A stretch of DNA of 64,000 nt from an uncultured virus (IMG/VR IMGVR_UViG_3300027743_000024) (lineage: Duplodnaviria; Heunggongvirae; Uroviricota; Caudoviricetes). The stretch lies in the IMG/VR virus record IMGVR_UViG_3300027743_000024; one strand, written 5' to 3'. Positions within the stretch are counted from its first letter, which is position 1. Each line of letters begins with the position of its first letter. The translations under genes were made by a program, and so were the position numbers. This document shows positions 41,710-60,034 of the stretch, piece after piece. The notes under the pieces are model-generated. The model had not been told where the DNA came from. It saw nothing but the letters and a program-made list of their open reading frames with translations, and ran no database searches.

Positions 41710-44276
41710 TATTTCTTAGGAGTTTTTTTAGCATTAATTTTCATCTTTTCAATTTGCATCTTCTTATCCATCATATCTTTGTCAGCTTTATGCTTCTCTC
41801 TTGATAGTTTGTCTTGGTTTGCATTTTGAATCTTAATTGCTTCAATCTTTTTATTCTCTATTTCCTTTTTATTTTCCATTTCCTTTTCCTTAATAGACAT
41901 TTGCTTATCATGTTTGCCTTTATCATTGGAAATCTTTTGTTGCTCTGTAAATGATTTTGCAGAAAGTTCTTGTTGCTTTAGAGACTGCATTGCAATTTCC
42001 TGAGCATCAGGTATTGCATTTGCATTAGCATCTTCTGATGGCATTTTAAAATAGTTTGCAATCTCTTGCACTTCTATCTTAGTTCTATTTGCTGCATCAG
42101 AAACATACTGTTTTAAATCTCTTTCTTTCTGTCTATCCATCATCTCTTCTTGATGTCTAGCATTTTGAGCTTCTATATTAGCTTGATTGTCTTTAGACTG
42201 TTGTTCTTGTTGTTGCTTCTGTCTTTCATAGAAAGATTCTTCACCACGTTTAAGTTCAGCAATAATGTCTTTAGGACTATCATTTAATATTGTATTAATA
42301 ATTGTAGACAAGTCTGCTTTTTGTTGTTGCATTGCAACTTGTGCTAATTGTTCAAGCTTAGCAATAACTGCTTTGTCCTTAGAAGAGTTTGTTACAAACA
42401 CTGAAAATTCAGAATTCTCAAATTCAAATTCTTCTAGTCTTAGCATTTCAATTCCCATATCATCAGAAACATATTGCTGAACACTTCCATCCTTGTAAGC
42501 AATCTTAGCAACTTCTATTAATGATCCATACACTCTTCTAATAACTTCATTATGAGCAGTGAATAAATACTCTGTAATTAATGATGATTGATTAACAGCT
42601 CTTTCTGTATTACCTACAAGTTCAGAGTTATTAATTGCTCCAAGACGTTGAGGTGTAATACCAGACACTGTATATATCTGTTGCTCAATGTATTGTAAGT
42701 AGTTAATGTATGATTGAATTGAGTTTGCTAATGATAAGTCAATTGCTGTGAATTGATTAAAATTAGATGTCTTACCTTGTTGAGCTCCTTTGCCACTTTC
42801 CTCATGTGAATTGACAAAAGCTATCTTCATCTCATTTAAGTAGTACATCCATTGGTCAACATCAATACCTTCACTTCTAGGAATAGATGCCATGTCCATT
42901 AAAAACACTTTACCTTTGTCACTAGCAAATGCTAGCTCAAGTCTAAATGCAATAATATCATATAAATATTGATATGGCTTAAGTCTATCAATTAATGAAA
43001 CAGAACGTGAGTTAGTTGCTTCATAAATATATCCAGTGTAGCCAAGCTTGCAATAGTATGGGTTGTCCATTCTGCGTCTCTGGTTTTCTTTTGCTCTAAT
43101 ATCTAAATAAATATCTGCTCCAATTTTAACACCTTCCCAAGCCTCATTGATCCAATCCCATTCAAGTTCTGCATCAGGAAAGTTTTCTTTGAATAATTTA
43201 AATGAACTTCCAAATGTGTCATCAACCTGTTCCATTTGTGGTTGACCTTCTTCATCTGTGTAAGACAAGAAACCAATCTTTTTCATAGATATCCATTCAA
43301 CTCTGGCAACTCTGACAGCATAATTGTTTACATTGTTACCATTGAATGAAGATGTAGGTGTTGCTCCATTAATAACTGCTCTTCCATCAACTATCTGCAT
43401 TGTAGGTTCAAATCCACCTGCAGTGTTGAATGATCCAAATGTACCACGGGAGTATTCAATTAGTTTATCTCTAGTTTCATTAGTTAATTGATCACCATAT
43501 TCATCAATGATTGATGGCACAGTTAACATCCTTTCCTCAACCACTGCAATTGCATCATCATAAAATACACAGTCATCATCTAGAATTACAGTGATATTTA
43601 ATGTGTTACATTTTCTTAATGCTGGCTCTCCATTTAGAATACCAGTCCAATAAACTTCTTCTCCTGCAATTAATGCATCTTTAAATCCTTGATTGAATAA
43701 CCATTTAGTATTAAGTTTCTTTTTAAGAATCTTTAACATTCTATTTGCTTTTGATTCAATTAAATCTGAAGGAGAATATTGCTCAGCCTTAATAATTTGC
43801 TCAGGTGTTGGTGGAGGATTGTTTGGATCAATTGATGCTGGATCTATTTCAGCTTGTAACTGCTGATTCAATGCCAACAAAAGCTTCTTTTTTAAGTTAG
43901 CTTGCTTTCTATCTAAATCATCTGGAGCTTCAGATACTACTAATGAGTTATCTGGTTTAGCAGACTCTTCTCCAATTAAAAGTCTGATTGGTTCTGATAT
44001 CTTATCATAATGCATGAACTTGTCAGCCCATGTGTTACCTGTATATCCTAATGGATTACAAATAGCTTCTACATCACTCTTGTTAATTACACCATTATAT
44101 AAATCATAATTAGTAATCTTTTTAGATCTATCACTTCTTAAGTTTGATCCATTTGTATATCTGAAGTTTAGGTAGTAGTCAACTGATGACTCTTTCCATG
44201 CTTTATTCTTTTGTGCAGTTGTAACCTTTTGTACTGGAAGGGAACTTGAGCTTGCATTATCTATTGGTGCTGACAT
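41709..44276 (-). CDS. Portal protein
   Basis: 855 aa; NYDLYNG, LIGEE, WINEAWEG, SGITPQRLG motifs; follows terminase. Confidence 0.9.
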   Translation of the reverse strand: MSAPIDNASSSSLPVQKVTTAQKNKAWKESSVDYYLNFRYTNGSNLRSDRSKKITNYDLYNGVINKSDVEAICNPLGYTGNTWADKFMHYDKISEPIRLLIGEESAKPDNSLVVSEAPDDLDRKQANLKKKLLLALNQQLQAEIDPASIDPNNPPPTPEQIIKAEQYSPSDLIESKANRMLKILKKKLNTKWLFNQGFKDALIAGEEVYWTGILNGEPALRKCNTLNITVILDDDCVFYDDAIAVVEERMLTVPSIIDEYGDQLTNETRDKLIEYSRGTFGSFNTAGGFEPTMQIVDGRAVINGATPTSSFNGNNVNNYAVRVARVEWISMKKIGFLSYTDEEGQPQMEQVDDTFGSSFKLFKENFPDAELEWDWINEAWEGVKIGADIYLDIRAKENQRRRMDNPYYCKLGYTGYIYEATNSRSVSLIDRLKPYQYLYDIIAFRLELAFASDKGKVFLMDMASIPRSEGIDVDQWMYYLNEMKIAFVNSHEESGKGAQQGKTSNFNQFTAIDLSLANSIQSYINYLQYIEQQIYTVSGITPQRLGAINNSELVGNTERAVNQSSLITEYLFTAHNEVIRRVYGSLIEVAKIAYKDGSVQQYVSDDMGIEMLRLEEFEFENSEFSVFVTNSSKDKAVIAKLEQLAQVAMQQQKADLSTIINTILNDSPKDIIAELKRGEESFYERQKQQQEQQSKDNQANIEAQNARHQEEMMDRQKERDLKQYVSDAANRTKIEVQEIANYFKMPSEDANANAIPDAQEIAMQSLKQQELSAKSFTEQQKISNDKGKHDKQMSIKEKEMENKKEIENKKIEAIKIQNANQDKLSREKHKADKDMMDKKMQIEKMKINAKKTPKK

Positions 44277-46351
44277 TATCTTGCTTTAAATGTGAATTTG
44301 TTTTGTGAGTTATAATCTTTCTTTTCCCATAACTTTTTTAAAAACGGATCATTTGAATATGATCTTGAACTATTAGACATTGATTCTACATGTATCTTAT
44401 GTAAATCTTTAGTCTGTAGTATACACAGCATAAACGCAATAACTCTATCAAAGTTACCAGTGATATCATAAGCAACTAATTCCTTTAGTAATGCTATTGA
44501 TTTTATTGTGTGTAAGTTTAATATTTTATTACCATCTACATCATCTCTTTCAGAATATAACCAATCCTTTAGATAAAGCTCACATGTATCTTTAATGCCT
44601 GAAGAACCATTAGATCCTCTTGACATATGTATTCCATATCCCCGCTGAACTTTAGAGTCTTTAACTATATCTCTAATAATAGATGGTTGTTGGTATAAAT
44701 AATGTAATGAATTCTTTTGTTCAAAATATCCCTTAAACCCTTTTAACATATTCTCGTATAACACTTTAGCATTGTAATAAACACATAGTTTTCTACAGTT
44801 TTCATAGAAGTCATCTGCAAACTTAGGTCTACCAGTACATTCTGCTACCATTATATCATGTGTCTTACCTGCAGAATAGAATCTCTTATATACAAAGAAA
44901 GAACCTAATGAATTGGTTCCTGATTTATCCATATCATAAGGGTCACATCCAGCAACATATAATGCATATGGTATTTCTCCATTAACTCTCTCTGGTCTTT
45001 CAAATATTGCAATACATCCACTAGCATCTATATAAGAGTTTGAATCTTTGTTATTATTAAGTGGGAATTCTGTTATGTAGTGCATGTCATCTGATGGCTC
45101 AAACTCAATCTCACTATTTCTAAATACTAAATGTCCAGTCTCAACTGAGTTTCTAATAGAAGGAGTTGTCTCAACTGTTGATAGCCATTCTAACATTTCA
45201 GGAGAACTAAATATGGCCCCTTTATCTCTTAAAAAAGCTTCTTTATATGATAGAGGGAATTGTGTTAGAACACCATGCAAAGCTTTAGGATCAAGTCCAG
45301 TTTTAGCTTTATTTCTTAGATGCTCTAAGTCATCAATAGCTGCTGCTTCATTTGAATTACCATTCTCATCTACCATTGGTTGTTTATACCATTTAGAATC
45401 TGGGTTCATACATAGTCCCCAACGTCCTTTGGCTGCTGATGAAAAGAATCCAGTTAATTTAGATTGGTCCTCTGGGTCTTGGAACTCAAGCATATTATAC
45501 TTGCTTGGATTCATAAACATCTCATAGAAATATTTAGATCCTGTGTCCATGTTACCTGATGAACCAAATAGTAATGCAACTCCCGTATATATTGAACCAT
45601 CTTTAATAAGTGGTTCTGTATAAGAATATGTATCCACTATATTAGGGAATACACCAGTCTCATCCAGTATCAACCAATTAGCTGACAAACCCACGGCAGC
45701 TGTTGGGTTATCTTTAAATGATATTGATTTAACATTACTCTTATATCCTTTCCAAACTTTAATACCTCCTAAGTCAACTTGATATCTAGCAACTATATTA
45801 TCTTTTAAGTCTGGATTTCTTTGCTTTCTAAATTCTGTATTAGCATTTAAATGGTTAAGATTATCTACAACCATGTTCATTGTGTTCTGACTAAATGCAG
45901 ACATAAATGCACCAATAACAGTTCTTGAATCTGGATAGAATGTAAACTCATGTGAGCCAATAGCTCCTGCTTTATAACTCCATCCTTGACGTCTACCTTT
46001 AACAGCAATCAAACTTTTTTGGTTGTGTCTACAATAATCAATCATCCAAAAGTATTCATAATCTAAGTCAACAAACTTAGGGAATATCTTACTCTTCCTA
46101 CCAGTAGCTTCATTGTGACCTAATATAGGACAGAAGTTTAAATAAAAAAAATGTATACCTGTTATACTAATCCCATCTGAATTAGTAATTCCATTTATAC
46201 ATTTATCCTTTACATCTTCCCAGAACAACTTATATTCATATGTTCCTCTAGGCAAATTAGTATACATACCATTCTCATTAAAGAACTCAGCTAAATAGCT
46301 AAACTCTTTTGAGTTTGTAAATGTTTCTACATTTGGTATATACTTATTCAT
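44276..46351 (-). CDS. terL: Terminase large subunit
   Basis: Walker A KGRRQGWS, Walker B LILDE, nuclease GCDPY and NFDRV motifs. Confidence 0.92.
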   Translation of the reverse strand: MNKYIPNVETFTNSKEFSYLAEFFNENGMYTNLPRGTYEYKLFWEDVKDKCINGITNSDGISITGIHFFYLNFCPILGHNEATGRKSKIFPKFVDLDYEYFWMIDYCRHNQKSLIAVKGRRQGWSYKAGAIGSHEFTFYPDSRTVIGAFMSAFSQNTMNMVVDNLNHLNANTEFRKQRNPDLKDNIVARYQVDLGGIKVWKGYKSNVKSISFKDNPTAAVGLSANWLILDETGVFPNIVDTYSYTEPLIKDGSIYTGVALLFGSSGNMDTGSKYFYEMFMNPSKYNMLEFQDPEDQSKLTGFFSSAAKGRWGLCMNPDSKWYKQPMVDENGNSNEAAAIDDLEHLRNKAKTGLDPKALHGVLTQFPLSYKEAFLRDKGAIFSSPEMLEWLSTVETTPSIRNSVETGHLVFRNSEIEFEPSDDMHYITEFPLNNNKDSNSYIDASGCIAIFERPERVNGEIPYALYVAGCDPYDMDKSGTNSLGSFFVYKRFYSAGKTHDIMVAECTGRPKFADDFYENCRKLCVYYNAKVLYENMLKGFKGYFEQKNSLHYLYQQPSIIRDIVKDSKVQRGYGIHMSRGSNGSSGIKDTCELYLKDWLYSERDDVDGNKILNLHTIKSIALLKELVAYDITGNFDRVIAFMLCILQTKDLHKIHVESMSNSSRSYSNDPFLKKLWEKKDYNSQNKFTFKAR

Positions 46352-49215: not shown

Positions 49216-49452
49216 TTATAAAGCTACATAGTCTGGGTGATTTACTATCTCCTCCACCCTTTTATATTCATCCATTAGCTCATCACTTATATGTATGTTG
49301 TCAATGTTATCAGTTGCATCACATATCTGTTTAAAGTTGTCATCACTAACTTGATTAAATGTTACCCTCCTTTTAGATGCAATACTAATTAGTCTCTTGC
49401 CTAGCTTTAATAGTTTCTCATCTCTCCAATCTAATATTCTATTAATCAGCAT
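49216..49452 (-). CDS. Hypothetical protein
   Basis: 78-aa ORF. Confidence 0.45.
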   Translation of the reverse strand: MLINRILDWRDEKLLKLGKRLISIASKRRVTFNQVSDDNFKQICDATDNIDNIHISDELMDEYKRVEEIVNHPDYVAL

Positions 49453-49657
49453 TGTCCCAGTTTTTATTAGTAGTGTTAAATGTCTCTATCTTCTTCATTG
49501 CTGATTCCCAATAGTTTATCTGTGTTGAATTATCACTTGTTAATGTAGGATAGTTCATTCTCCTAACACCTTCCTTTAAATGTATATCTCCATTCTCTAC
49601 ATCTACAAATAATATTTCATCATCATAGTAGTTCTTACTCATTGTCTTTGCTCTCAT
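49442..49657 (-). CDS. Hypothetical protein
   Basis: 71-aa ORF overlapping next gene. Confidence 0.45.
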   Translation of the reverse strand: MRAKTMSKNYYDDEILFVDVENGDIHLKEGVRRMNYPTLTSDNSTQINYWESAMKKIETFNTTNKNWDNAD

Positions 49658-50207
49658 ATTTTTTAGTTATTTCTTTTTGTGAGTTTATAATTCCTTGTTG
49701 TGATAGTTCTAAGATCATTGTATTAATAATCTTAATCTTTAATTCTGCTGTTAACTTATCCCATTCTAATAATGTGTTAACATATTCCCTTGTTACTCTC
49801 TCCATTGTTTTTTATATCTTACATCCATACATAAGCATCATTTCATATTGGTTTTTTAGTCTGAACCATGATTCATATCCAAGCTTCTTCTTTCTTCTTT
49901 CTATTAATGCTTGCATTCTAAACTGTGATTTTCTCTTGTTCTTGATAGTCATAGCAATCTTTTAATGTTAATGGATGGTATGCATGTCCTGTAACTTTAT
50001 AGGTATTTCTCATTGTTGACATGTAATTATACAATTTTCTTGTATTATATATTCTTTTCCTTTTATTTTTTATTGTCATAATAATAAGTGTTCATTATAT
50101 TCCTATGCATTCCATGGTGTTTCCATTCTTTTATAAATTGCTCAACTGAAAGACTTTTTGGTATATTCTTATAATCCATTGTGTATATTCTCTTCTTCCT
50201 TTTGTTC

Positions 50208-50423
50208 TTAATAGTCATTGTATTTTCTGCTTATATATAATTGTTTCATTAATTCAATACATCCTTCCTCATCTCTTTGGTTATAATTAAATATTCCATT
50301 AACCATTCCCCTCATTGTGTTCACTTGAGCTATTATATTAGCACCATTTAATACAAGGCATTTACCAACTGATAGTCTTGTTTGATGGTTAGTTACAATT
50401 ATTTTTATGTTTTCTGTTTCCAC
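50208..50423 (-). CDS. Hypothetical protein
   Basis: 71-aa ORF (GTG start) after host-type promoter. Confidence 0.4.
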   Translation of the reverse strand: METENIKIIVTNHQTRLSVGKCLVLNGANIIAQVNTMRGMVNGIFNYNQRDEEGCIELMKQLYISRKYNDY

Positions 50424-50456
50424 TATTAATGTATAGCTATTAGTTTAATTTCAATA

Positions 50457-50492
50457 CAAAGGTAGTGTATAATTATAACATATACAACTTTG
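50457..50492 (-). promoter_or_regulatory. Bacteroidota housekeeping-sigma promoter
   Basis: TTG...TACCTTTG matches the Bacteroidota -33/-7 (TAnnTTTG) consensus. Confidence 0.55.
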
Positions 50493-50628
50493 TTTTATAT
50501 TTTTTTTGTAAAATTTTTTGTGTGTGTTAAGAGAGGGAGGTTATTTTTATTTTTTTTGAGTATGTTTAAAGGTGGGGCAACTCCAGAAACCTCCCCTCCT
50601 TAAATCTACGGGGAAAAATGCTTTCCAA

Positions 50629-50730
50629 GTGCTTCTGTCAACCGCAGATTTGATGTGCCAAACGCACAAGCACACGTATTAGCTCATTGGTCAAACGCCA
50701 ACCAGTCTGTCAAACACAGATGAGCTAATA
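50629..50730 (+). repeat. Four 5-bp hairpins with CAAAC/CAACC loops in two multibranch structures
   Basis: TCTGT-CAACC-GCAGA, TGTGC-CAAAC-GCACA, TTGGT-CAAAC-GCCAA, TCTGT-CAAAC-ACAGA. Confidence 0.8.
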
Positions 50731-50802
50731 ATAGCACAATATTATCCTTATGGTAGATGGTGAACCATTCTTTATTTATTATGCTTGCAAATACCGCTTA
50801 TT

Positions 50803-51108
50803 ATGGAATCTAAATTGAAAGTTGTAACAGTACAAGAGTTTATGAAATCAAATGGTATGGTTTCTATTGTACCTGTAGTACGCACAAATGTGAATGATTA
50901 TCCTTACATCACATTCATTAACAACAAGAATGAATCAGAGAACATATACTTCTCTAAGGATTCTTCCAAGTTGTTAACTAAAGGATTGCCTATTACAAGA
51001 GGCTTCTTTGCTAACTATAGTATTGGGTTCACAACCAATGCTGCAGGTGAGACAAGAACCAAACTTGTTGGACAAGGTCAACGTTTATCTGTTGAGGACT
51101 TGTTCTAA
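50803..51108 (+). CDS. First plus-strand (early) gene, hypothetical
   Basis: ATG at 50803 (MESKLK...) preferred over the TTG at 50785. Confidence 0.65.
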   Translation: MESKLKVVTVQEFMKSNGMVSIVPVVRTNVNDYPYITFINNKNESENIYFSKDSSKLLTKGLPITRGFFANYSIGFTTNAAGETRTKLVGQGQRLSVEDLF

Positions 51109-52014
51109 GGATCACGCATACACACAAGCTATCTACCATTGAGTAGGTTGAAAATGGATAACCATTGCTTGTGTGTGTGTGCCTTTAATTACTTAAATGA
51201 ATTAGATTAATTATTTACATTTAAATTAAATTAAATGATTTCAATTAATGGGTGTGTTTGTGTTTCTTTAGAAGATTCACTTGCATTTGATTTTAAATAG
51301 AGGTTTAATTGCCTTGTTAAAGAAATGAGGGATAATGATATTGATTGATATAACTTATTGATTGTCAGGATATTATAGATTAAAGGAGTGTTTATTCCAT
51401 TTAATTATAATTGATTGATTGTCAATGAGTTATATTGATAACTAATTAGATAAATCACTTAAAAATGATTGAGTAAATGAGCTGAATGACTAGTTAGACT
51501 AGGGGTACAGCCCATTCTTCCAATGATTAACCATTTTAGTCTTTATTCAAAAAAGATTAATATGTATTTTATATAGCTTTTAATTAATTAATCAGAACAT
51601 GATACAAATTTTATTGAATTAAGAATATAAATAAAATGTAGTTGTAATTCTGTTAAATGATTGTATATATTAATCAATTATTAGCTTATTTACAAGTCCT
51701 TATGAACTAATGATTAAGGCATATTATTATGTTTAAAACAAAAGAAGCTGTTAAGTACGCAATTGACCTAAAATCGTTTAAGCAACGTGTGATTAACTCA
51801 TATGTGTCACTAGGGAATGTAATTGCCAGTTAATTCAGAGTTGTACAATAAGACTATAAAATCTAGTTAATATTATTGTATAATATAACTGCCACAAAAT
51901 TCAAAAAGATAAAATGTCTTTTGATATGTAATAACGAGTAACTGAATAGTTATACATATATTTTCTTTTATTAACTAATTAACAACTAACCGCTTACTAA
52001 AAACATTTAAACAA

Positions 52015-52272
52015 ATGAAACAATTCAAAACATTAATCAAAGAATCTGCAATTATATGTTTAATTGTATTTGCATTCATATTGTCAATATTTATGACATC
52101 ATGTGAAGAACCACAACCAAGAATTCCATCAATAGCTGATGAAGTTGTTAAATATTCTGGTAATTATGAAATCATTAATGATTCTATTGCTGTTCTTAAA
52201 GATGGCAAAGCAAATAGAGATTTTATATACAAGAAAATTGCCTTAAATGGCAGATGGAAAAGAGTTATTTAA
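52015..52272 (+). CDS. Putative small lipoprotein
   Basis: Signal peptide ending FMTSC. Confidence 0.55.
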   Translation: MKQFKTLIKESAIICLIVFAFILSIFMTSCEEPQPRIPSIADEVVKYSGNYEIINDSIAVLKDGKANRDFIYKKIALNGRWKRVI

Positions 52273-52292
52273 ACCTTTAAAAAAATAAACAA

Positions 52293-52646
52293 ATGAAAGT
52301 ATTAATTAATGATTGCTACGGTGGATTTTCATTCTCCACTGAATTTAAAGACCATATCAATTCTATAACTGATAATCTTATAAATAAATATAAACTTTCA
52401 GCAAGACATAATGTTCTTTTAGTTGAAGAAGCTATTAAATTTGGTCTTGACAAAGCATCAGGTATATGTGCTCAACTAATTGTAGTTGAAATTCCAGATG
52501 GTTGTGAATACAACATACGTGAATATGATGGAATGGAACATATTAATGATATTTGGATAGAAGTATCTAAAGAAGATTTATCAAATGGTTTATCTGAAGA
52601 CCAAATAAATATGGTCCTAAAGGGATGTTCCATAAAGCTTAAATAG
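52293..52646 (+). CDS. Conserved phage hypothetical protein
   Basis: INDCYGGFSFS...VVEIPD...EYDGMEHI motif pattern recurrent in phage proteins. Confidence 0.65.
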   Translation: MKVLINDCYGGFSFSTEFKDHINSITDNLINKYKLSARHNVLLVEEAIKFGLDKASGICAQLIVVEIPDGCEYNIREYDGMEHINDIWIEVSKEDLSNGLSEDQINMVLKGCSIKLK

Positions 52647-54955: not shown

Positions 54956-55041
54956 AGTCAGGTAATGCGTAATGTGGAAATGGCATCACATCCTTTAGTA
55001 CAATGGTTGCATCGTTACAGGTTCGAGTCCTGTTCTGACTA
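54956..55041 (+). ncRNA. tRNA-like RNA A (no canonical anticodon arm)
   Basis: Acceptor AGTCAGG/TCTGACT+A, T-arm ACAGG-TTCGAGT-CCTGT. Confidence 0.6.
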
Positions 55042-55047
55042 CAAATT

Positions 55048-55151
55048 TCACTCTTAGTGTTATGAGGTAAAACACTTTGACCCTTATATCGCCTGATGTT
55101 GCAACATCCGAATATAAGGAGAGTAAGTTGGTTCGAATCCAACAGAGTGGA
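55048..55151 (+). ncRNA. tRNA-like RNA B with extended central hairpin
   Basis: Acceptor TCACTCT/AGAGTGG+A, D-arm GTGT/ACAC, T-arm GTTGG-TTCGAAT-CCAAC; long CCTTATAT...ATATAAGG arm capped by GATGTTGCAACATC. Confidence 0.6.
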
Positions 55152-55156
55152 CAAAT

Positions 55157-55228
55157 AGTCAGGTGGCGGAATTGGTTAGACGCAGGTATCTCATGATATG
55201 ATTGCAGGTTCGAATCCTGTTCTGACTA
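55157..55228 (+). ncRNA. tRNA-like RNA C (Leu-type D arm, shortened CAT-containing arm)
   Basis: AGTCAGG-TG-GCGGAATTGGTTAGACGC...GCAGG-TTCGAAT-CCTGT-TCTGACT-A; central GTATC-TCAT-GATAT has no 7-nt loop. Confidence 0.6.
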
Positions 55229-55380
55229 CTTTATCTGCTGAAAGCAAACATATAAAGCTGGACCTACGGAATAGGTTTATAATCCCAACCAAGATGGAGT
55301 TGTTTGTAGACAGATACTCGTACCAGCTTATATATTATGTATAAGACGAAGTATTCACACACTTGGAGTGACAGGAATAT

Positions 55381-55402
55381 AAAGAGAGGGTAACACCTCT
55401 CT
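55381..55402. terminator. Bidirectional terminator at end of endonuclease gene
   Basis: AAAGAGAGG-GTAACA-CCTCTCTTT inverted repeat. Confidence 0.65.
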
Positions 55403-56056
55403 TTATTTATATTTAAAAACAAGTTTATTACAGCTTTTAGCTTTATTTCTACAACATCTTGCTATATTAGCAGGGTCAATGTTGTAAAAAGCGGCACATT
55501 CTGCTACAGATGAAAACTCAGATATATTAATATTGTTTTTATATACTAATACAGTCTTTTTTTGTTTTTCTCTAAAATGTTGGACATTTTTGAGTTTAAT
55601 GAAAGATAAAGGATTAGTATAAAACAAATTATAAGCTTTTATAGCTTTTTTAGATGTGTTAAATTCTCCAATATAATAAACAGTATTAAGATATGAGCAT
55701 CTTACACGATACTTTCCTTTGTATATATCATACTTTTTGGCTGTAGTTTTAGGAAGATAATCTTTACATTGCAGTTTACCACCTATATGATTATTACATA
55801 ATTTGTTTGATTGATAATAACTTATCCAGTATATTTCTCTTTGTTCCCAAGATTCTTCTATACATTCTTCAATTATATCTATAATAGGTAATTTATTAGA
55901 TTTGGCTAAATATTTTATCCAGTTAGCTAATCTTGATTTTAGCCTTTTTGCATTAGATATATGAGAAGAATACCTGTTTTTTATATTACCAGTTTTTCCT
56001 ATATATCTTATTTCTAAGGTATCAGGATCCATTAACTTATAAATGTATATTTTCAT
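55403..56056 (-). CDS. Free-standing GIY-YIG homing endonuclease with AP2-like and NUMOD1-like domains
   Basis: YIYKL...RYIGKT..R..H; YIGEFNT..AIKAYN; FSSVAECA...NIARCCRNK; antisense to neighbours. Confidence 0.85.
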   Translation of the reverse strand: MKIYIYKLMDPDTLEIRYIGKTGNIKNRYSSHISNAKRLKSRLANWIKYLAKSNKLPIIDIIEECIEESWEQREIYWISYYQSNKLCNNHIGGKLQCKDYLPKTTAKKYDIYKGKYRVRCSYLNTVYYIGEFNTSKKAIKAYNLFYTNPLSFIKLKNVQHFREKQKKTVLVYKNNINISEFSSVAECAAFYNIDPANIARCCRNKAKSCNKLVFKYK

Positions 56057-56061
56057 ATTAT

Positions 56062-56094
56062 AATATACATAAATTACCTGTCATATGCAACTTA
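56062..56094 (-). promoter_or_regulatory. Putative late promoter of the endonuclease
   Basis: TAAG TTGCAT N17 TATATT, 5 nt before the ATG. Confidence 0.7.
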
Positions 56095-56148
56095 TTTGCA
56101 TATTTTTTTGGAGTGACAGGTAATAACTAAACGCTAGTGGGTAAAGCG

Positions 56149-56262
56149 TAGCAACAGAATGTCCTATTCATACTACATTAATCTATATAGCTGGTCAAGT
56201 CAGTATGTGAGCACATAAGGACACATAATAGATTATAAGGTAGTGTGTTGTAAAGGTTGCTG
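56149..56262 (+). ncRNA. Structured RNA candidate (nested stems, pseudoknot)
   Basis: TAGCAAC/GTTGCTG, CATACTAC/GTAGTGTG, TAATCTAT/ATAGATTA; TGTCCT/AGGACA. Confidence 0.45.
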
Positions 56263-56264
56263 AT

Positions 56265-56406
56265 AGTCAGGTGGTATATTAGAAAACATTTGGTAATATG
56301 GAGCTGCAGTGAAGTATTACATGGCAGGTTAAGTAAAGAGTAATTACTTTATGTAAACTGATAAAGGAATCATCCTTTGGTACCAGGGCAGAACTGGTCC
56401 TGACTA
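56265..56406 (+). ncRNA. tRNA-like RNA D (142 nt, expanded interior)
   Basis: Acceptor AGTCAGG/CCTGACT+A, T-like arm ACCAG-GGCAGAA-CTGGT, several internal hairpins. Confidence 0.55.
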
Positions 56407-56437
56407 CAATTAACAATTAATATTTAACTTTGAACCC

Positions 56438-56740
56438 ATGAAAGTAGACTTAGATGATGAAAAAGCAGCTATTGGCTTAGAAAAAAATAGTAAGGATTGT
56501 AAACATGGATGGAATGATGGTAGTTGCTGTTGTAATTGCAGTAATTTAGTATTAGTTAATAGACATCCAAGCAATACTTTAGTTGAAGCTAAAGGAAGCA
56601 TATCAACTACTTTTGGTTTTGGATGTAAAGCAATGACATTTGATGAGAGTGGAGAAAATAAAAACAAAATAGATAGAATAATATTTAGCTCATCTTTACA
56701 TGGAATGTGTGAATTACATTGTAGAAATAAACCAAAATAA
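56438..56740 (+). CDS. Cys-rich hypothetical protein
   Basis: 100 aa; CCCNC and HGMCELH motifs. Confidence 0.55.
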   Translation: MKVDLDDEKAAIGLEKNSKDCKHGWNDGSCCCNCSNLVLVNRHPSNTLVEAKGSISTTFGFGCKAMTFDESGENKNKIDRIIFSSSLHGMCELHCRNKPK

Positions 56741-56741
56741 A

Positions 56742-56829
56742 TGTGTTGTTCCTTTGAGAAAGGAATTGGTTAGAGAGATAAAGTGAAGGTTATGCTAACA
56801 CTCTACAACACAGAGGACTTCTCATCCTC
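56742..56829 (+). ncRNA. Structured RNA candidate with kissing loops
   Basis: TGTGTTGT/ACAACACA stem; loops TGAGA and TCTCA complementary. Confidence 0.5.
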
Positions 56830-56835
56830 AAACAT

Positions 56836-56907
56836 TGGACAGAGCAGGGTATTGTAGCTTGAGGTTCCTAGGCTCAAGAAGATGGGTTTCAAATACCCAC
56901 TGTCCAG
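56836..56907 (+). ncRNA. tRNA-like RNA E (degenerate D arm, 9-nt central loop)
   Basis: TGGACAG/CTGTCCA+G, T-arm TGGGT-TTCAAAT-ACCCA, CTTGAG-GTTCCTAGG-CTCAAG. Confidence 0.55.
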
Positions 56908-56914
56908 CAAAAAT

Positions 56915-57005
56915 AGTCAGGTGGCGGAATTGGTTAGACGCTATATAGCAGTTTGGAAACAAGCCCAGCTACGAAAAATTACAGGTTCGAATCCTGTCCT
57001 GACTA
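56915..57005 (+). ncRNA. tRNA-like RNA F (anticodon arm replaced by GAAA-capped hairpin)
   Basis: Same 5' 27 nt as RNA C; TAGC-A-GTTTG-GAAA-CAAGC-CCA-GCTA; ACAGG-TTCGAAT-CCTGT-CCTGACT-A. Confidence 0.65.
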
Positions 57006-57006
57006 C

Positions 57007-57113
57007 AATAGGTTGATTGGGGAAAGCTGCTCATGCGGAAGAGGAGGATATAATCCAAAGTAATGCCAATCATAAAAGCAGATGTCCACGCACCCATCTT
57101 CTGCTTTCCTATT
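57007..57113 (+). ncRNA. Structured RNA candidate (three-way junction)
   Basis: AATAGG/CCTATT, TGATTGG/CCAATCA, AAAGCAGA/TCTGCTTT. Confidence 0.5.
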
Positions 57114-57149: not shown

Positions 57150-57290
57150 ATGAAAATAGTAATAACAATAGGAGATTTTAAAGTTGAACTATCTGATAAT
57201 ACTGATAGTGCTATAAAATACATTTTTGTAGAAATTAGACAAACAATAACAAGTGTTGTAACAGATTATAAATCACTAAACAAACAATAA
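57150..57290 (+). CDS. Mini-gene (46 aa) ending SLNKQ
   Basis: ORF read manually; ends in array junction motif. Confidence 0.5.
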   Translation: MKIVITIGDFKVELSDNTDSAIKYIFVEIRQTITSVVTDYKSLNKQ

Positions 57291-57294
57291 TAAT

Positions 57295-57492
57295 ATGGCA
57301 GACATAACAAAATGTAAAGGTATAGATTGTTCAATTAAAGATACATGTTATAGATATACAGCAATTGAATCAATATTGCAATCTTACTTTATGGAATCTC
57401 CTATTAAGGATGGTAAATGTGATATGTATTGGGGTGAGGATGCTGAAGCTATATTTAATCAGTTAAAAGGAATACTAAACAAACAAGACTAA
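57295..57492 (+). CDS. Cys-containing mini-gene ending LNKQD
   Basis: MADITKCKGIDC...CYRY; 65 aa. Confidence 0.65.
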   Translation: MADITKCKGIDCSIKDTCYRYTAIESILQSYFMESPIKDGKCDMYWGEDAEAIFNQLKGILNKQD

Positions 57493-57623
57493 TATGAAAA
57501 CAGAATTATGTTAGAAAACGAAAATTTGAATGAAGCAGAAAAACCGCAATTGAATATAGGTGCTGTTAGGTATCAGTATTTTTAAACAGAAGGGGAGAAA
57601 TTAAAAACTAAAATTATATAGAT

Positions 57624-57944
57624 ATGAGAAATGAAAAAACAGTAACAACAAAATTAATGATGAGCTTGTACGCAATGGCTTCCCATCAAGGTTTTTTAGG
57701 TGTTAGAACAGGTAATAATGATTTAGATTTATTTGTTTTAAATCAATGGATTAGAAAGCGTATTAATATCCATATTTTAATTGAATTAGACTATGAAGAA
57801 GGAATGTATAGAATAAATGCTTGTAATATACAACGTGAGCCTGAATGGATGTTAAATAAAATATACGATAAATATTTATTCAAAAATTATGAATTCGCTT
57901 TATTTACAGGTATTAGTGAATTTTTAAAACAAAACTATTTATGA
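57624..57944 (+). CDS. Hypothetical protein (cassette 1)
   Basis: 106-aa ORF. Confidence 0.6.
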   Translation: MRNEKTVTTKLMMSLYAMASHQGFLGVRTGNNDLDLFVLNQWIRKRINIHILIELDYEEGMYRINACNIQREPEWMLNKIYDKYLFKNYEFALFTGISEFLKQNYL

Positions 57945-58207
57945 AAACAAAAGACGATTTAAAAAAAGAGTATGTTTTTAGGCATACAAAAAATTGGGAT
58001 AAAGAAACTACTGAAAAATACATATATAATGTTTTAGAAGATTTTAGTGTTTTTTATCAGGGATATTTGGAAGGAATAAAATCTGTTGCTGATAAAGCAT
58101 TGCCAATTTTAGAATACACAAAAGGCAAATTAGATTCATCGGCAGGCTTTTTTCAGCAATCAGTTGATAATTTAATAACGGATTTGCACACACACACAGG
58201 CGGGTAG
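57941..58207 (+). CDS. Hypothetical protein (cassette 1)
   Basis: 88-aa ORF, ATGA-coupled. Confidence 0.6.
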   Translation: MKTKDDLKKEYVFRHTKNWDKETTEKYIYNVLEDFSVFYQGYLEGIKSVADKALPILEYTKGKLDSSAGFFQQSVDNLITDLHTHTGG

Positions 58208-58223
58208 GGTTTAAAAATATTGT

Positions 58224-58317
58224 ACCTAACGGTCGAGGCTATGAGCAGTTGCCTTGTAAATACTGTTCAATTAACCAACAAACGCTGATAGGCAATTGCT
58301 TATAGCCTTTGTTAGCA
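58224..58317 (+). repeat. attC-like recombination site (94 bp)
   Basis: ACCTAAC ... AGGCTATGAGCAGTTGCCT / AGGCAATTGCTTATAGCCT ... GTTAGCA. Confidence 0.65.
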
Positions 58318-58673
58318 AACGTATTTTATGGATTATAAATTAACAACAAACAGACAATATTCACACCACGATAAAGATGGTGCTGATAGAAATTACATAT
58401 CCTATTTTTTGAATGGTATATTAATATTGAAACAAAAAATACCATTTGATACAAATTGGGAAAGAGGTTTTGATAGACGAACATCAATATATGATGAATA
58501 TATTTTGAATGGTAAAATGTATCAAAAACGCAGAAAATGGCTTGGGTGTTCTAATGAGGATAATGATAAAACAGAGATACGAGAAGTATCATTTCCATTA
58601 TCAAAAAATAGATTAGCACAATTTGATATACCAAAGGACTTTCGGATTGTGGTGTCTTAATATGTTTGCTAAC
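58311..58673 (+). mobile_element. Integron-like gene cassette 2
   Basis: Starts GTTAGCAAACGTATT, ends AATATGTTTGCTAAC (14/15 complementary), tightly enclosing one ORF. Confidence 0.6.
58328..58660 (+). CDS. Hypothetical protein (cassette 2)
   Basis: 110-aa ORF. Confidence 0.65.
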   Translation: MDYKLTTNRQYSHHDKDGADRNYISYFLNGILILKQKIPFDTNWERGFDRRTSIYDEYILNGKMYQKRRKWLGCSNEDNDKTEIREVSFPLSKNRLAQFDIPKDFRIVVS

Positions 58674-58727
58674 TAATGGCTAACCGCCATAACGTGGCGT
58701 ATATACAACTAAATAAACAAGACTAAT
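58667..58727 (+). repeat. Direct repeat copy 1 (47 bp exact, 61 bp with 2 mismatches)
   Basis: TGCTAACTAATGGCTAACCGCCATAACGTGGCGTATATACAACTAAA, repeated 490 bp downstream. Confidence 0.9.
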
Positions 58728-58971
58728 GAAAACTAAAGAAGAAATAGTAATACAAGCAAAAGCGTATGCAGAATCTATTGGTAATGAAGATGGAACATCT
58801 GCTTATGATTATGTAATGGGTTACAACCAATGCCAAGAAGATATAAAGGAATATATTTTTGAAGTAGCATTTCAATTTCATAGATTAGGCAAATATAGTG
58901 GTAACACAAGTGATACTCATTTTACTGATATTTATGAAGAAACAATAAACTCACTAAACAAACAAGACTAA
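58726..58971 (+). CDS. MKTKEEI...LNKQD family mini-gene
   Basis: 81 aa; shares GYNQCQED block with 59385-59594. Confidence 0.65.
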   Translation: MKTKEEIVIQAKAYAESIGNEDGTSAYDYVMGYNQCQEDIKEYIFEVAFQFHRLGKYSGNTSDTHFTDIYEETINSLNKQD

Positions 58972-59162
58972 TGACAAGTAGAGATTTTGCCTTTTGGCTA
59001 CAAGGGTTTTTTGAAGTAAGCAATGCTGAAACAATTACCAAAGAACAAACACAAGTGATTAAAAAGCATTTAAACTTAGTATTTAAGCATGAAATAGACC
59101 CAAGTATGGGAGATGAAAAACATCAACAGGAGTTAAATGAAATACATAGCCCTTACTGCTAA
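58971..59162 (+). CDS. Phage mini-gene (MTSRDFAFWLQGFFE)
   Basis: 63 aa; TAATG-coupled. Confidence 0.65.
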   Translation: MTSRDFAFWLQGFFEVSNAETITKEQTQVIKKHLNLVFKHEIDPSMGDEKHQQELNEIHSPYC

Positions 59163-59217
59163 CTAATGGCTAACCGCCATAACGTGGCGTATATACAACT
59201 AAAAAAACAAGACCAAT
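59157..59217 (+). repeat. Direct repeat copy 2
   Basis: Matches 58667-58727. Confidence 0.9.
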
Positions 59218-59385
59218 ATGAACAAAATAGAGAGAGCAATTTATGATGCTAAAATTCATATAAAAGATTTAGAAAAAGACAGACTTATAATTGAAACTAA
59301 AATTGATGCCTTTAACAGTATGCTGACTAACTTAGAAAGCATTGAAAGTTCTACAAGTATTCCACATATAAACAAACAAGAATAA
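59218..59385 (+). CDS. Mini-gene (55 aa) ending INKQE
   Basis: ORF read manually between two junction motifs. Confidence 0.55.
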   Translation: MNKIERAIYDAKIHIKDLEKDRLIIETKIDAFNSMLTNLESIESSTSIPHINKQE

Positions 59386-59594
59386 TGAAAACACAAGAAG
59401 AAATAAAACAGTTAGCTGAATCAATTTATGGTAAAGGTAAAGTTGAAGATTATGAAGAAGGATTTATAGATGGTTACAACCAATGCCAAGAAGATATGGC
59501 TAAGAAATACGCAGAAGATGATATGTTAAAATGTTGGAATACTGCTCACAAAATGGCAGAACAATACTACAAAAAAACATTTAAACAAGACTAA
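59385..59594 (+). CDS. MKTQEEI...FKQD family mini-gene
   Basis: 69 aa; TAATG-coupled. Confidence 0.65.
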   Translation: MKTQEEIKQLAESIYGKGKVEDYEEGFIDGYNQCQEDMAKKYAEDDMLKCWNTAHKMAEQYYKKTFKQD

Positions 59595-59860
59595 TGAAAA
59601 CAAAAGAAGAAATAGAAGCAATGGCAAATGACTTTGTATCACTTGCATTTAATAAACAAGATTTGTATGATGGCTTTATAAATGGCTACACTCAAGGCAG
59701 TTTAGATATGGCTAATGTTGATAATGTAAAAGTAACAAGATTTGAAGTCATTGATGAAAGTGGGAGAGTATATACTAAGCGTAAGTGTAAAGTAGAATTA
59801 TCTTACCAAGATGATGACACAACTTTAAAAGTATTTATTAAACAAACAAGAATAATATGA
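59594..59860 (+). CDS. MKTKEEI family mini-gene fused to VTRFEVID...GRVY module
   Basis: 88 aa; TAATG-coupled. Confidence 0.65.
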   Translation: MKTKEEIEAMANDFVSLAFNKQDLYDGFINGYTQGSLDMANVDNVKVTRFEVIDESGRVYTKRKCKVELSYQDDDTTLKVFIKQTRII

Positions 59861-60034
59861 AAACACACATCAAAGCATCACTCATCACACTGTTGATTAT
59901 ATCAGCAATTATAGGATTAGTATATTCAATGATATTTTATCCTCAATTATTGGTAGATATTTTTATGTATATAGCATTAGTGGTAGTTGTTGTAGCCATT
60001 TATCAATTAGTGTTAATAAACATAAAGAAATAAG

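Follow-up and report, generated by a model that had tools for sequence, protein, structure and literature searches.

Hairpins that share a loop are a recurrent device in regulation. In the RsmZ and CsrB RNAs, with their GGA loops, and in arrays of iron-responsive elements, several hairpins with unrelated stems present one shared loop to copies of one protein. In phages, the lambda nut (boxA/boxB) and HK022 put sites provide structured early-operon leader RNA, including pentaloop hairpins, that acts on the transcribing polymerase. Hairpins also serve as DNA signals, as in phage N4, whose virion RNA polymerase (RNAP) promoters P1-P3 carry a template-strand hairpin with a GC-rich heptamer centred at -11. 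The polymerase injected by crAss-like phages belongs to a fold class unrelated to the T7-like enzyme of N4; no promoter is known for it, nor is a role known for the abundant early non-coding transcripts. To our knowledge, no multi-hairpin, shared-loop system has been described for Bacteroidota phages.

The control of early expression in crAss-like phages is an open question, and here we describe a compact, bounded candidate regulatory module at the expected early start of one such genome. We conclude that this structured element is genuine and under strong selection, that it has not been described before and that it is most likely an accessory leader RNA of multivalent binding design.

Genomic setting

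We analysed a stretch of 64,000 nt (the window) whose source is an environmental, uncultured crAss-like phage. The minus strand carries crAss-type late genes from position 12 to about 50423, including a 4322-aa ORF and the genes for the large terminase (44276-46351, minus strand), the portal and the major head protein. The terminase shows at most 35.5% identity to any deposited phage, and all 162 records that it matched are crAss-like or Bacteroidota phages. From 50803 rightwards, dozens of small ORFs occupy the plus strand. Searches against Pfam gave nothing above the curated cut-off for 20 rightward ORFs, except DUF2201 in a 393-aa ORF, and nothing above it for the 28 small proteins near the element, hence no binder candidate came from there.

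The element lies at the strand switch, within a divergent intergenic region of 380 nt, and the first rightward gene follows it at a distance of 70 nt. The pattern of small rightward ORFs points to an early region, and the initial annotation had spoken of the first early gene; this designation derives from gene order and from other crAss-like phages (phi14:2 and crAss001), and is presumed rather than measured. A blastn search with 49500-52500 returned no matches among deposited phages. In the leftward direction, a promoter box of the form TAnnTTTG (TACCTTTG, 50457..50464, minus strand), which we take to be the Bacteroidota -7 consensus, would drive transcription of the leftward genes and faces away from the element; an exact minus-strand match is present in 7 of 10 sequences compared.

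A T-rich run followed by a TGTGTG motif (50510..50526, plus strand) is kept in relatives, and the stretch adjoining it is hypervariable, with many indels. Contig ends were seen in this neighbourhood. The related locus L002 ends at window position 50539, and in all five of the IMG/VR loci L057-L061 a gene resembling the first rightward gene lies 0.3-2.5 kb from the contig end, pointing outwards; such ends may reflect an assembly break caused by hypervariable sequence, or a genome end. In L008, the segment matching window 49450-51300 (L008 347-3101) is inverted relative to the terminase gene, compared with the window, which may be an inversion or an assembly artefact.

Further into the rightward region, three tRNA-like copies lie within 54970-57010, with near-identical T-arms (55015-44, 55202-31 and 56979-57008) and identical 31-nt 5´ parts at 55153-83 and 56911-41. 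ARAGORN calls only one of the copies, with an odd anticodon. Two are recognised by Rfam, of which one measures 91 nt, and between the copies lies a gene for a GIY-YIG homing endonuclease (55403-56056, minus strand).

Four like loops on two three-way junctions

We scanned the 64-kb window for CAA[AC]C loops closed by stems of 4 or more pairs. On the plus strand four were found, all within 90 nt (50634-50721), which confirms the four hairpins with CAAAC or CAACC loops previously noticed before the first rightward gene. The minus strand gave three scattered singletons, a background far below the plus-strand cluster.

Both RNA and DNA folds of the plus strand arrange the hairpins in two three-way junctions, and all 45 listed pairs were confirmed base by base. 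Unit A (50629..50673) is closed by a 5-bp stem, GTGCT/AGCAC (50629-33 with 50669-73), which holds hairpin 1 (50634-50648, 5-bp stem, loop CAACC) and hairpin 2 (50654-50668, 5-bp stem, loop CAAAC), separated by the 5-nt linker TTTGA. Unit B (50677..50730) has a 10-bp closing stem, TATTAGCTCA/TGAGCTAATA (50677-86 with 50721-30), around hairpin 3 (50687-50701) and hairpin 4 (about 50706-50720), each with a 5-bp stem and a CAAAC loop, and the linker CCAG between them. The two multibranch units of the initial annotation are thus supported, with one correction. The closing stem of unit A had been given as GTGCTT/AAGCAC, but its sixth pair and the outer pairs of the two enclosed hairpins compete; with those hairpins kept at 5 bp, the closing stem is left with 5 bp rather than 6.

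The stems of the four hairpins differ by two-sided changes that preserve pairing, while the loops are alike, so that the four helices display the motif (U/C)CAAAC(G/A). Compensatory stem differences combined with like loops argue for folded hairpins and not for a duplex sequence motif. At the sequence level, the four copies of the core, of about 10 bp, are in direct orientation with spacings of 20, 33 and 19 bp.

The plus strand had been proposed as the folding strand because two stems need T-G wobbles. These wobbles (50638-50644 and 50691-50697) both close loops, and on the minus strand the loops merely grow to 7 nt. Fold z scores for the 106-nt element were -4.0 for plus-strand RNA, -1.9 for minus-strand RNA, -4.4 for plus-strand DNA and -3.6 for minus-strand DNA. 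Wobbles and z scores therefore favour the plus strand without proving it, given that the minus strand folds as well.

Close relatives keep the element almost unchanged

A metagenome scan with a degenerate pattern gave 23 loci, of which two, L079 and L070, were true and 21 were judged unrelated by eye. L079 represents the window's own sequence, with full identity across 4627 bases, and L070 is 79.6% identical over 50259-51300. Within the element, L070 has a single mismatch in 102 nt, compared with 60 in 306 nt of the adjoining gene (Fisher p = 2e-7), where 32 of the 60 fall at third codon positions; mismatches number 10 in 222 across the wider block (50578-50802). The one change, 50716 A>G in unit B, converts the loop-closing T-A of hairpin 4 to T-G, a wobble allowed only on the plus strand. 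All loops, all other stem bases and the 14 unpaired linker bases are unchanged.

Contigs from sequencing runs gave the same picture. The wastewater contig (X17) has no substitutions and one 1-nt gap over 50580-50731, compared with 18 substitutions in 285 for the gene contig of that run. In the freshwater run (X9), the stretch 50580-50834 is free of substitutions and has 6 nt inserted behind the ATG, compared with nine substitutions and six gaps in the upstream contig. The soil run (X12) contributed two exact pieces. Unit A is invariant in L070 and in the contigs of X9, X12 and X17; the word shares of 0.20-0.32 found in runs X8-X22 agree with the block's size, and the evidence used here is confined to the contigs of X9, X12 and X17. 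The flanks of the three lineages with the conserved element differ by about 4-20%. The X9 and X17 Logan contigs both begin at 50580, which gives the shared sequence a sharp left edge, and in both the conservation extends through the start codon, as expected if leader and translation start work as one RNA.

The block also has indels of 1 and 2 nt in L070 and X17 (at 50614, after 50626, at 50733-34 and at 50770), which exclude a hidden coding frame. Collectively, these data place the element under extreme purifying selection: it is almost letter-perfect where neighbouring genes drift, and it is very likely functional. The initial annotation had proposed a comparison of relatives for conserved loops and covarying stems. 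Conservation is near-perfect in close relatives and the hairpins are missing in more distant ones, and no stem covariation was seen between phages, the element being too conserved to show any.

A single-copy element of one narrow lineage

In 737,607 bases (the window plus 61 related loci), the element is the only cluster of four hairpins with the same loop; the 13 other same-loop clusters have three weak members each. From 738,781 bases, a covariance model (R1) recovered the element in the window and L070 alone, and the best of the remaining hits had an E value of 0.4. In viral contigs, neither an exact 25-mer nor the degenerate pattern was found, and none of eight loci from species genomes was true. 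At the gathering score, Rfam returned two tRNA matches for the whole window and assigned the element to no family; a permissive scan of 50400-52100 added three chance-level matches, all outside the element. With no terminator-like sites in 50200-51400, the element is not an intrinsic terminator. The early non-coding regions of phi14:2 contain no same-loop hairpin arrays, only tRNA-like T-arms.

The four hairpins are missing in L005 and L008, whose terminases are 87% identical, and in L057-L061. The element is single-copy and restricted to one narrow environmental lineage that has no cultured member.

A promoter-like module shared with more distant relatives

The conserved block begins with a part (50580..50626, plus strand) that starts where the X9 and X17 contigs do and has similar motifs in relatives. 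It comprises a C-rich box (CCTCCCCTCCTTAAAT, 50590-50605), downstream of the T-rich run and TGTGTG motif, and a hairpin-forming segment, GGAAA/TTTCC (50612-50626). A C-box-like motif followed by a hairpin-forming segment also lies upstream of the equivalent gene in L008 (1622-1660) and L057-L061 (L057 2474-2510 and 2901-2935; L058-L061 about 2876-2990). L005 has the C-box (about 3384-3340, minus strand) with a very weak hairpin. The C-box pattern matches the gene strand only, and the 85-kb record behind L057 has two tandem copies.

Both L005 and L008 have the layout of minus-strand TAnnTTTG box, T-rich run with TGTGT, C-rich box and hairpin-forming segment, which then leads straight into a different first gene. 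The five IMG/VR loci L057-L061, which encode homologues of the first rightward protein at 39-52% identity, have a C-box, TTGG, a hairpin of unrelated sequence and a short leader, and none has CAAAC hairpins. That the next relatives keep this module and lack the four hairpins suggests that the hairpins are an add-on between a promoter-like module and the start codon. The C-rich box and hairpin may be the promoter, or a 5´ element, of the rightward unit; they adjoin the four hairpins, are more widely conserved and offer a testable promoter candidate. Across diverged relatives, the box before the first rightward gene has a consensus near CCCC-Y-A-C-T, followed in the more distant ones by TTGG and then, in most, by a hairpin of unrelated sequence. 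For a possible pairing between a G-rich stretch and the C-box (50569-77 with 50593-601), the L070 changes are not compensatory.

The downstream part of the block (50732..50802, plus strand) runs up to the ATG and contains a hairpin, ATGGT/ACCAT (50750-50768). An upstream reading frame of 22 codons (50750-50818, plus strand) begins within this hairpin and overlaps the first 16 nt of the first gene. In L070 the loss of 1 nt shifts this frame, with 21 codons staying open, so the peptide is not conserved.

The first rightward gene (50803..51108, plus strand) encodes P0002, a 101-aa protein for which Pfam, PHROGs and a PDB profile search gave nothing usable. It has 12 homologues and no assigned family; homologues P0005-P0012 are 47-60% identical to it. 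Its predicted structure, a confident model (pLDDT 89), is a small beta-barrel. The best structural neighbours (Foldseek, VIA) are OB-fold ssDNA-binding proteins, at a best E of 0.039 and a best Z of 3.9, both below trust level, and Atlas matches were below 0.9. Directly after the gene lies a long hairpin, ACGCATACACACAAGC ... GCTTGTGTGTGTGT (51113-51185), whose apical part, CCATTGAGTAGGTTGAAAATGG, is kept in L070 and in L005, the latter being without the four hairpins. The about 900 nt from 51108 to 52015 hold no rightward ORF of at least 50 aa but do hold conserved short frames; one, ending ...SLEDSLAFDFK* at about 51300, is common to the window, L008 and L070.

A candidate leader RNA and competing explanations

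Tentatively, we read the element as an accessory, lineage-specific structured 5´ leader RNA that would offer four like loops to an oligomeric binder. A structured 5´ leader is in keeping with its position, its sense, its wobbles and the way conservation continues across the start codon; a promoter-like module common to distant relatives precedes it, the start codon follows it, and the leftward promoter faces away from it. The data establish the structure of the element, its uniqueness, that it is non-coding, its purifying selection and its position; what we infer is its action as RNA, the transcript start, the binding of a protein and the consequence of that binding. The 5´ end of the rightward (presumed early) transcript would fall at the C-rich box and hairpin (50580-50626) or shortly beyond them, and the nascent plus-strand RNA would fold into two three-way junctions showing four copies of the loop. 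One oligomeric RNA-binding factor, from phage or host, might then bind all loops together, and binding could determine what becomes of the early transcript, by affecting how stable it is, how the gene 70 nt downstream is translated or how processive the polymerase is. Antitermination, which the initial annotation had listed, or another leader-RNA role is compatible with everything seen.

Several observations temper this proposal. The minus strand and single-stranded DNA fold nearly as well. Covariation between phages is not seen, and pairing is supported instead by comparison of the four paralogous hairpins and by a single wobble change. Stems and linkers are also more strictly conserved than a protein-binding leader would usually require. 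A single contig of depth 2 from RNA-library run X23 (50796-51064) covers the gene only and starts 7 nt before the ATG, a weak hint that the transcript could start downstream of the element.

The DNA fold score (z -4.4) would also suit a signal that acts as single-stranded DNA, an unlikely alternative in which hairpins extruded from supercoiled or partly unwound DNA would help an ssDNA-dependent virion RNAP or a primase to load, perhaps assisted by P0002. The phi14:2 virion RNAP transcribes ssDNA and hardly dsDNA, and its early promoters have no known motif. N4 hairpin promoters are activated by SSB. In the window, L070, L008 and L005, the plus-strand sequence that precedes the block has no exact TAnnTTTG. 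The weak OB/SSB-like matches of P0002 point the same way but are below any trust level. However, the hairpins are missing in L005, L008 and L057-L061, though the C-box/hairpin module is kept there, and no second copy of the element occurs in the window or in any of the loci compared. N4 moreover has one template-strand hairpin per promoter, whereas here there are four and the non-template strand is favoured. A core virion-RNAP promoter, an origin or a packaging site is unlikely because close relatives lack the hairpins, and the C-box/hairpin module is the better promoter candidate. Of the multivalent platform that had been proposed, the platform itself fits the anatomy, with four like loops, compensatory stems and extreme conservation, and the virion-RNAP promoter, replication and packaging functions suggested for it become unlikely, with the hairpins missing in relatives as close as L005 and L008.

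The same loops could in principle work in trans. A repeated leader motif (TAAACAAACAAGA..ATG), found within the 45 nt before 6 of 32 rightward genes, has CAAAC at its core, in the same sense as in the loops. We nevertheless consider it distinctly unlikely that a small stable decoy RNA titrates a host RNA-binding protein or nuclease recognising CAAAC in unstructured A-rich leaders. The element is accessory, confined to one lineage and very strongly conserved, as is often the case for counter-defence items, and the non-coding early regions of phi14:2 are among its most abundant transcripts. Yet no terminator-like site follows the element, no candidate partner emerged, and the enrichment of the leader motif is weak because its carriers are a duplicated small-gene family. 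The bolder version, a sponge RNA made first after injection whose four CAAAC loops titrate a host RNA-binding protein or a defence nuclease, is likewise quite doubtful; if true, early messages would be freed or protected, and crAss-like (Bacteroidota) phages would have their first described protein-sponge RNA. Seven copies of the leader motif (ACTAAACAAACAAGACTAAT, then ATG) precede small paralogous rightward genes in window 57274-59865. An antisense brake on late mRNAs was rejected, as the complement GTTTG occurs in just 1 of 41 late-gene leaders.

Recognition of the duplex or of a cruciform, with iteron-like TG(Y)CAAAC(R)C repeats bound by a replication initiator or a transcription regulator beside an AT-rich unwinding stretch, seems to us very unlikely. 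The four direct cores, the adjoining T-rich runs (50490-50560) and the location at the cumulative GC skew minimum suit such a site, but the arms differ yet stay complementary, which serves folding and not duplex recognition, and the two long closing stems would have no role. The skew minimum says little because gene orientation changes at the same place, and close relatives are again without the element. Least of all do we believe that the sequence has no function of its own and is a recent insertion or a selfish palindromic element, spread by recombination and mimicking conservation. Its presence or absence among relatives, its sharp left boundary at 50580 and the indel-rich adjoining intergenic region would agree with this. 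Against it, the element occurs in one genomic context only: the true matches, L079 and L070, share that context (2 of 23 metagenome loci, no viral loci, 0 of 8 genome loci), which is not the distribution of a miniature inverted-repeat or other mobile element. It is also conserved in lineages whose flanks have diverged, and the sole stem change keeps pairing.

Comparison with known systems

The resemblance to N4 is that a phage with an injected RNA polymerase of its own has small hairpins where its early region begins, and that the stems, of about 5 bp, are free in sequence if paired. In N4, however, one hairpin serves each of three dispersed promoters, whereas here four hairpins with 5-nt loops form one cluster, with no single template-strand hairpin centred at -11 and no further early copies in the 64 kb that relatives would share. 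The N4 hairpins are on the template strand; here the non-template strand is favoured and close relatives are without the hairpins.

Like lambda nut and HK022 put, the element would be a structured leader with pentaloop hairpins, here in a candidate leader. A lambda-type nut site requires a boxA consensus, a boxB hairpin with a GNRA-like pentaloop and a cognate N protein. The element differs in loop sequence, CAAAC not being of the GNRA-like boxB type, and in number, with four hairpins arranged as two junctions where those leaders have one or two; the polymerase here is probably not the host enzyme. Closest in design are the RsmZ/CsrB-type RNAs, from which the element is set apart by its other motif and by its place in a candidate phage 5´ leader.
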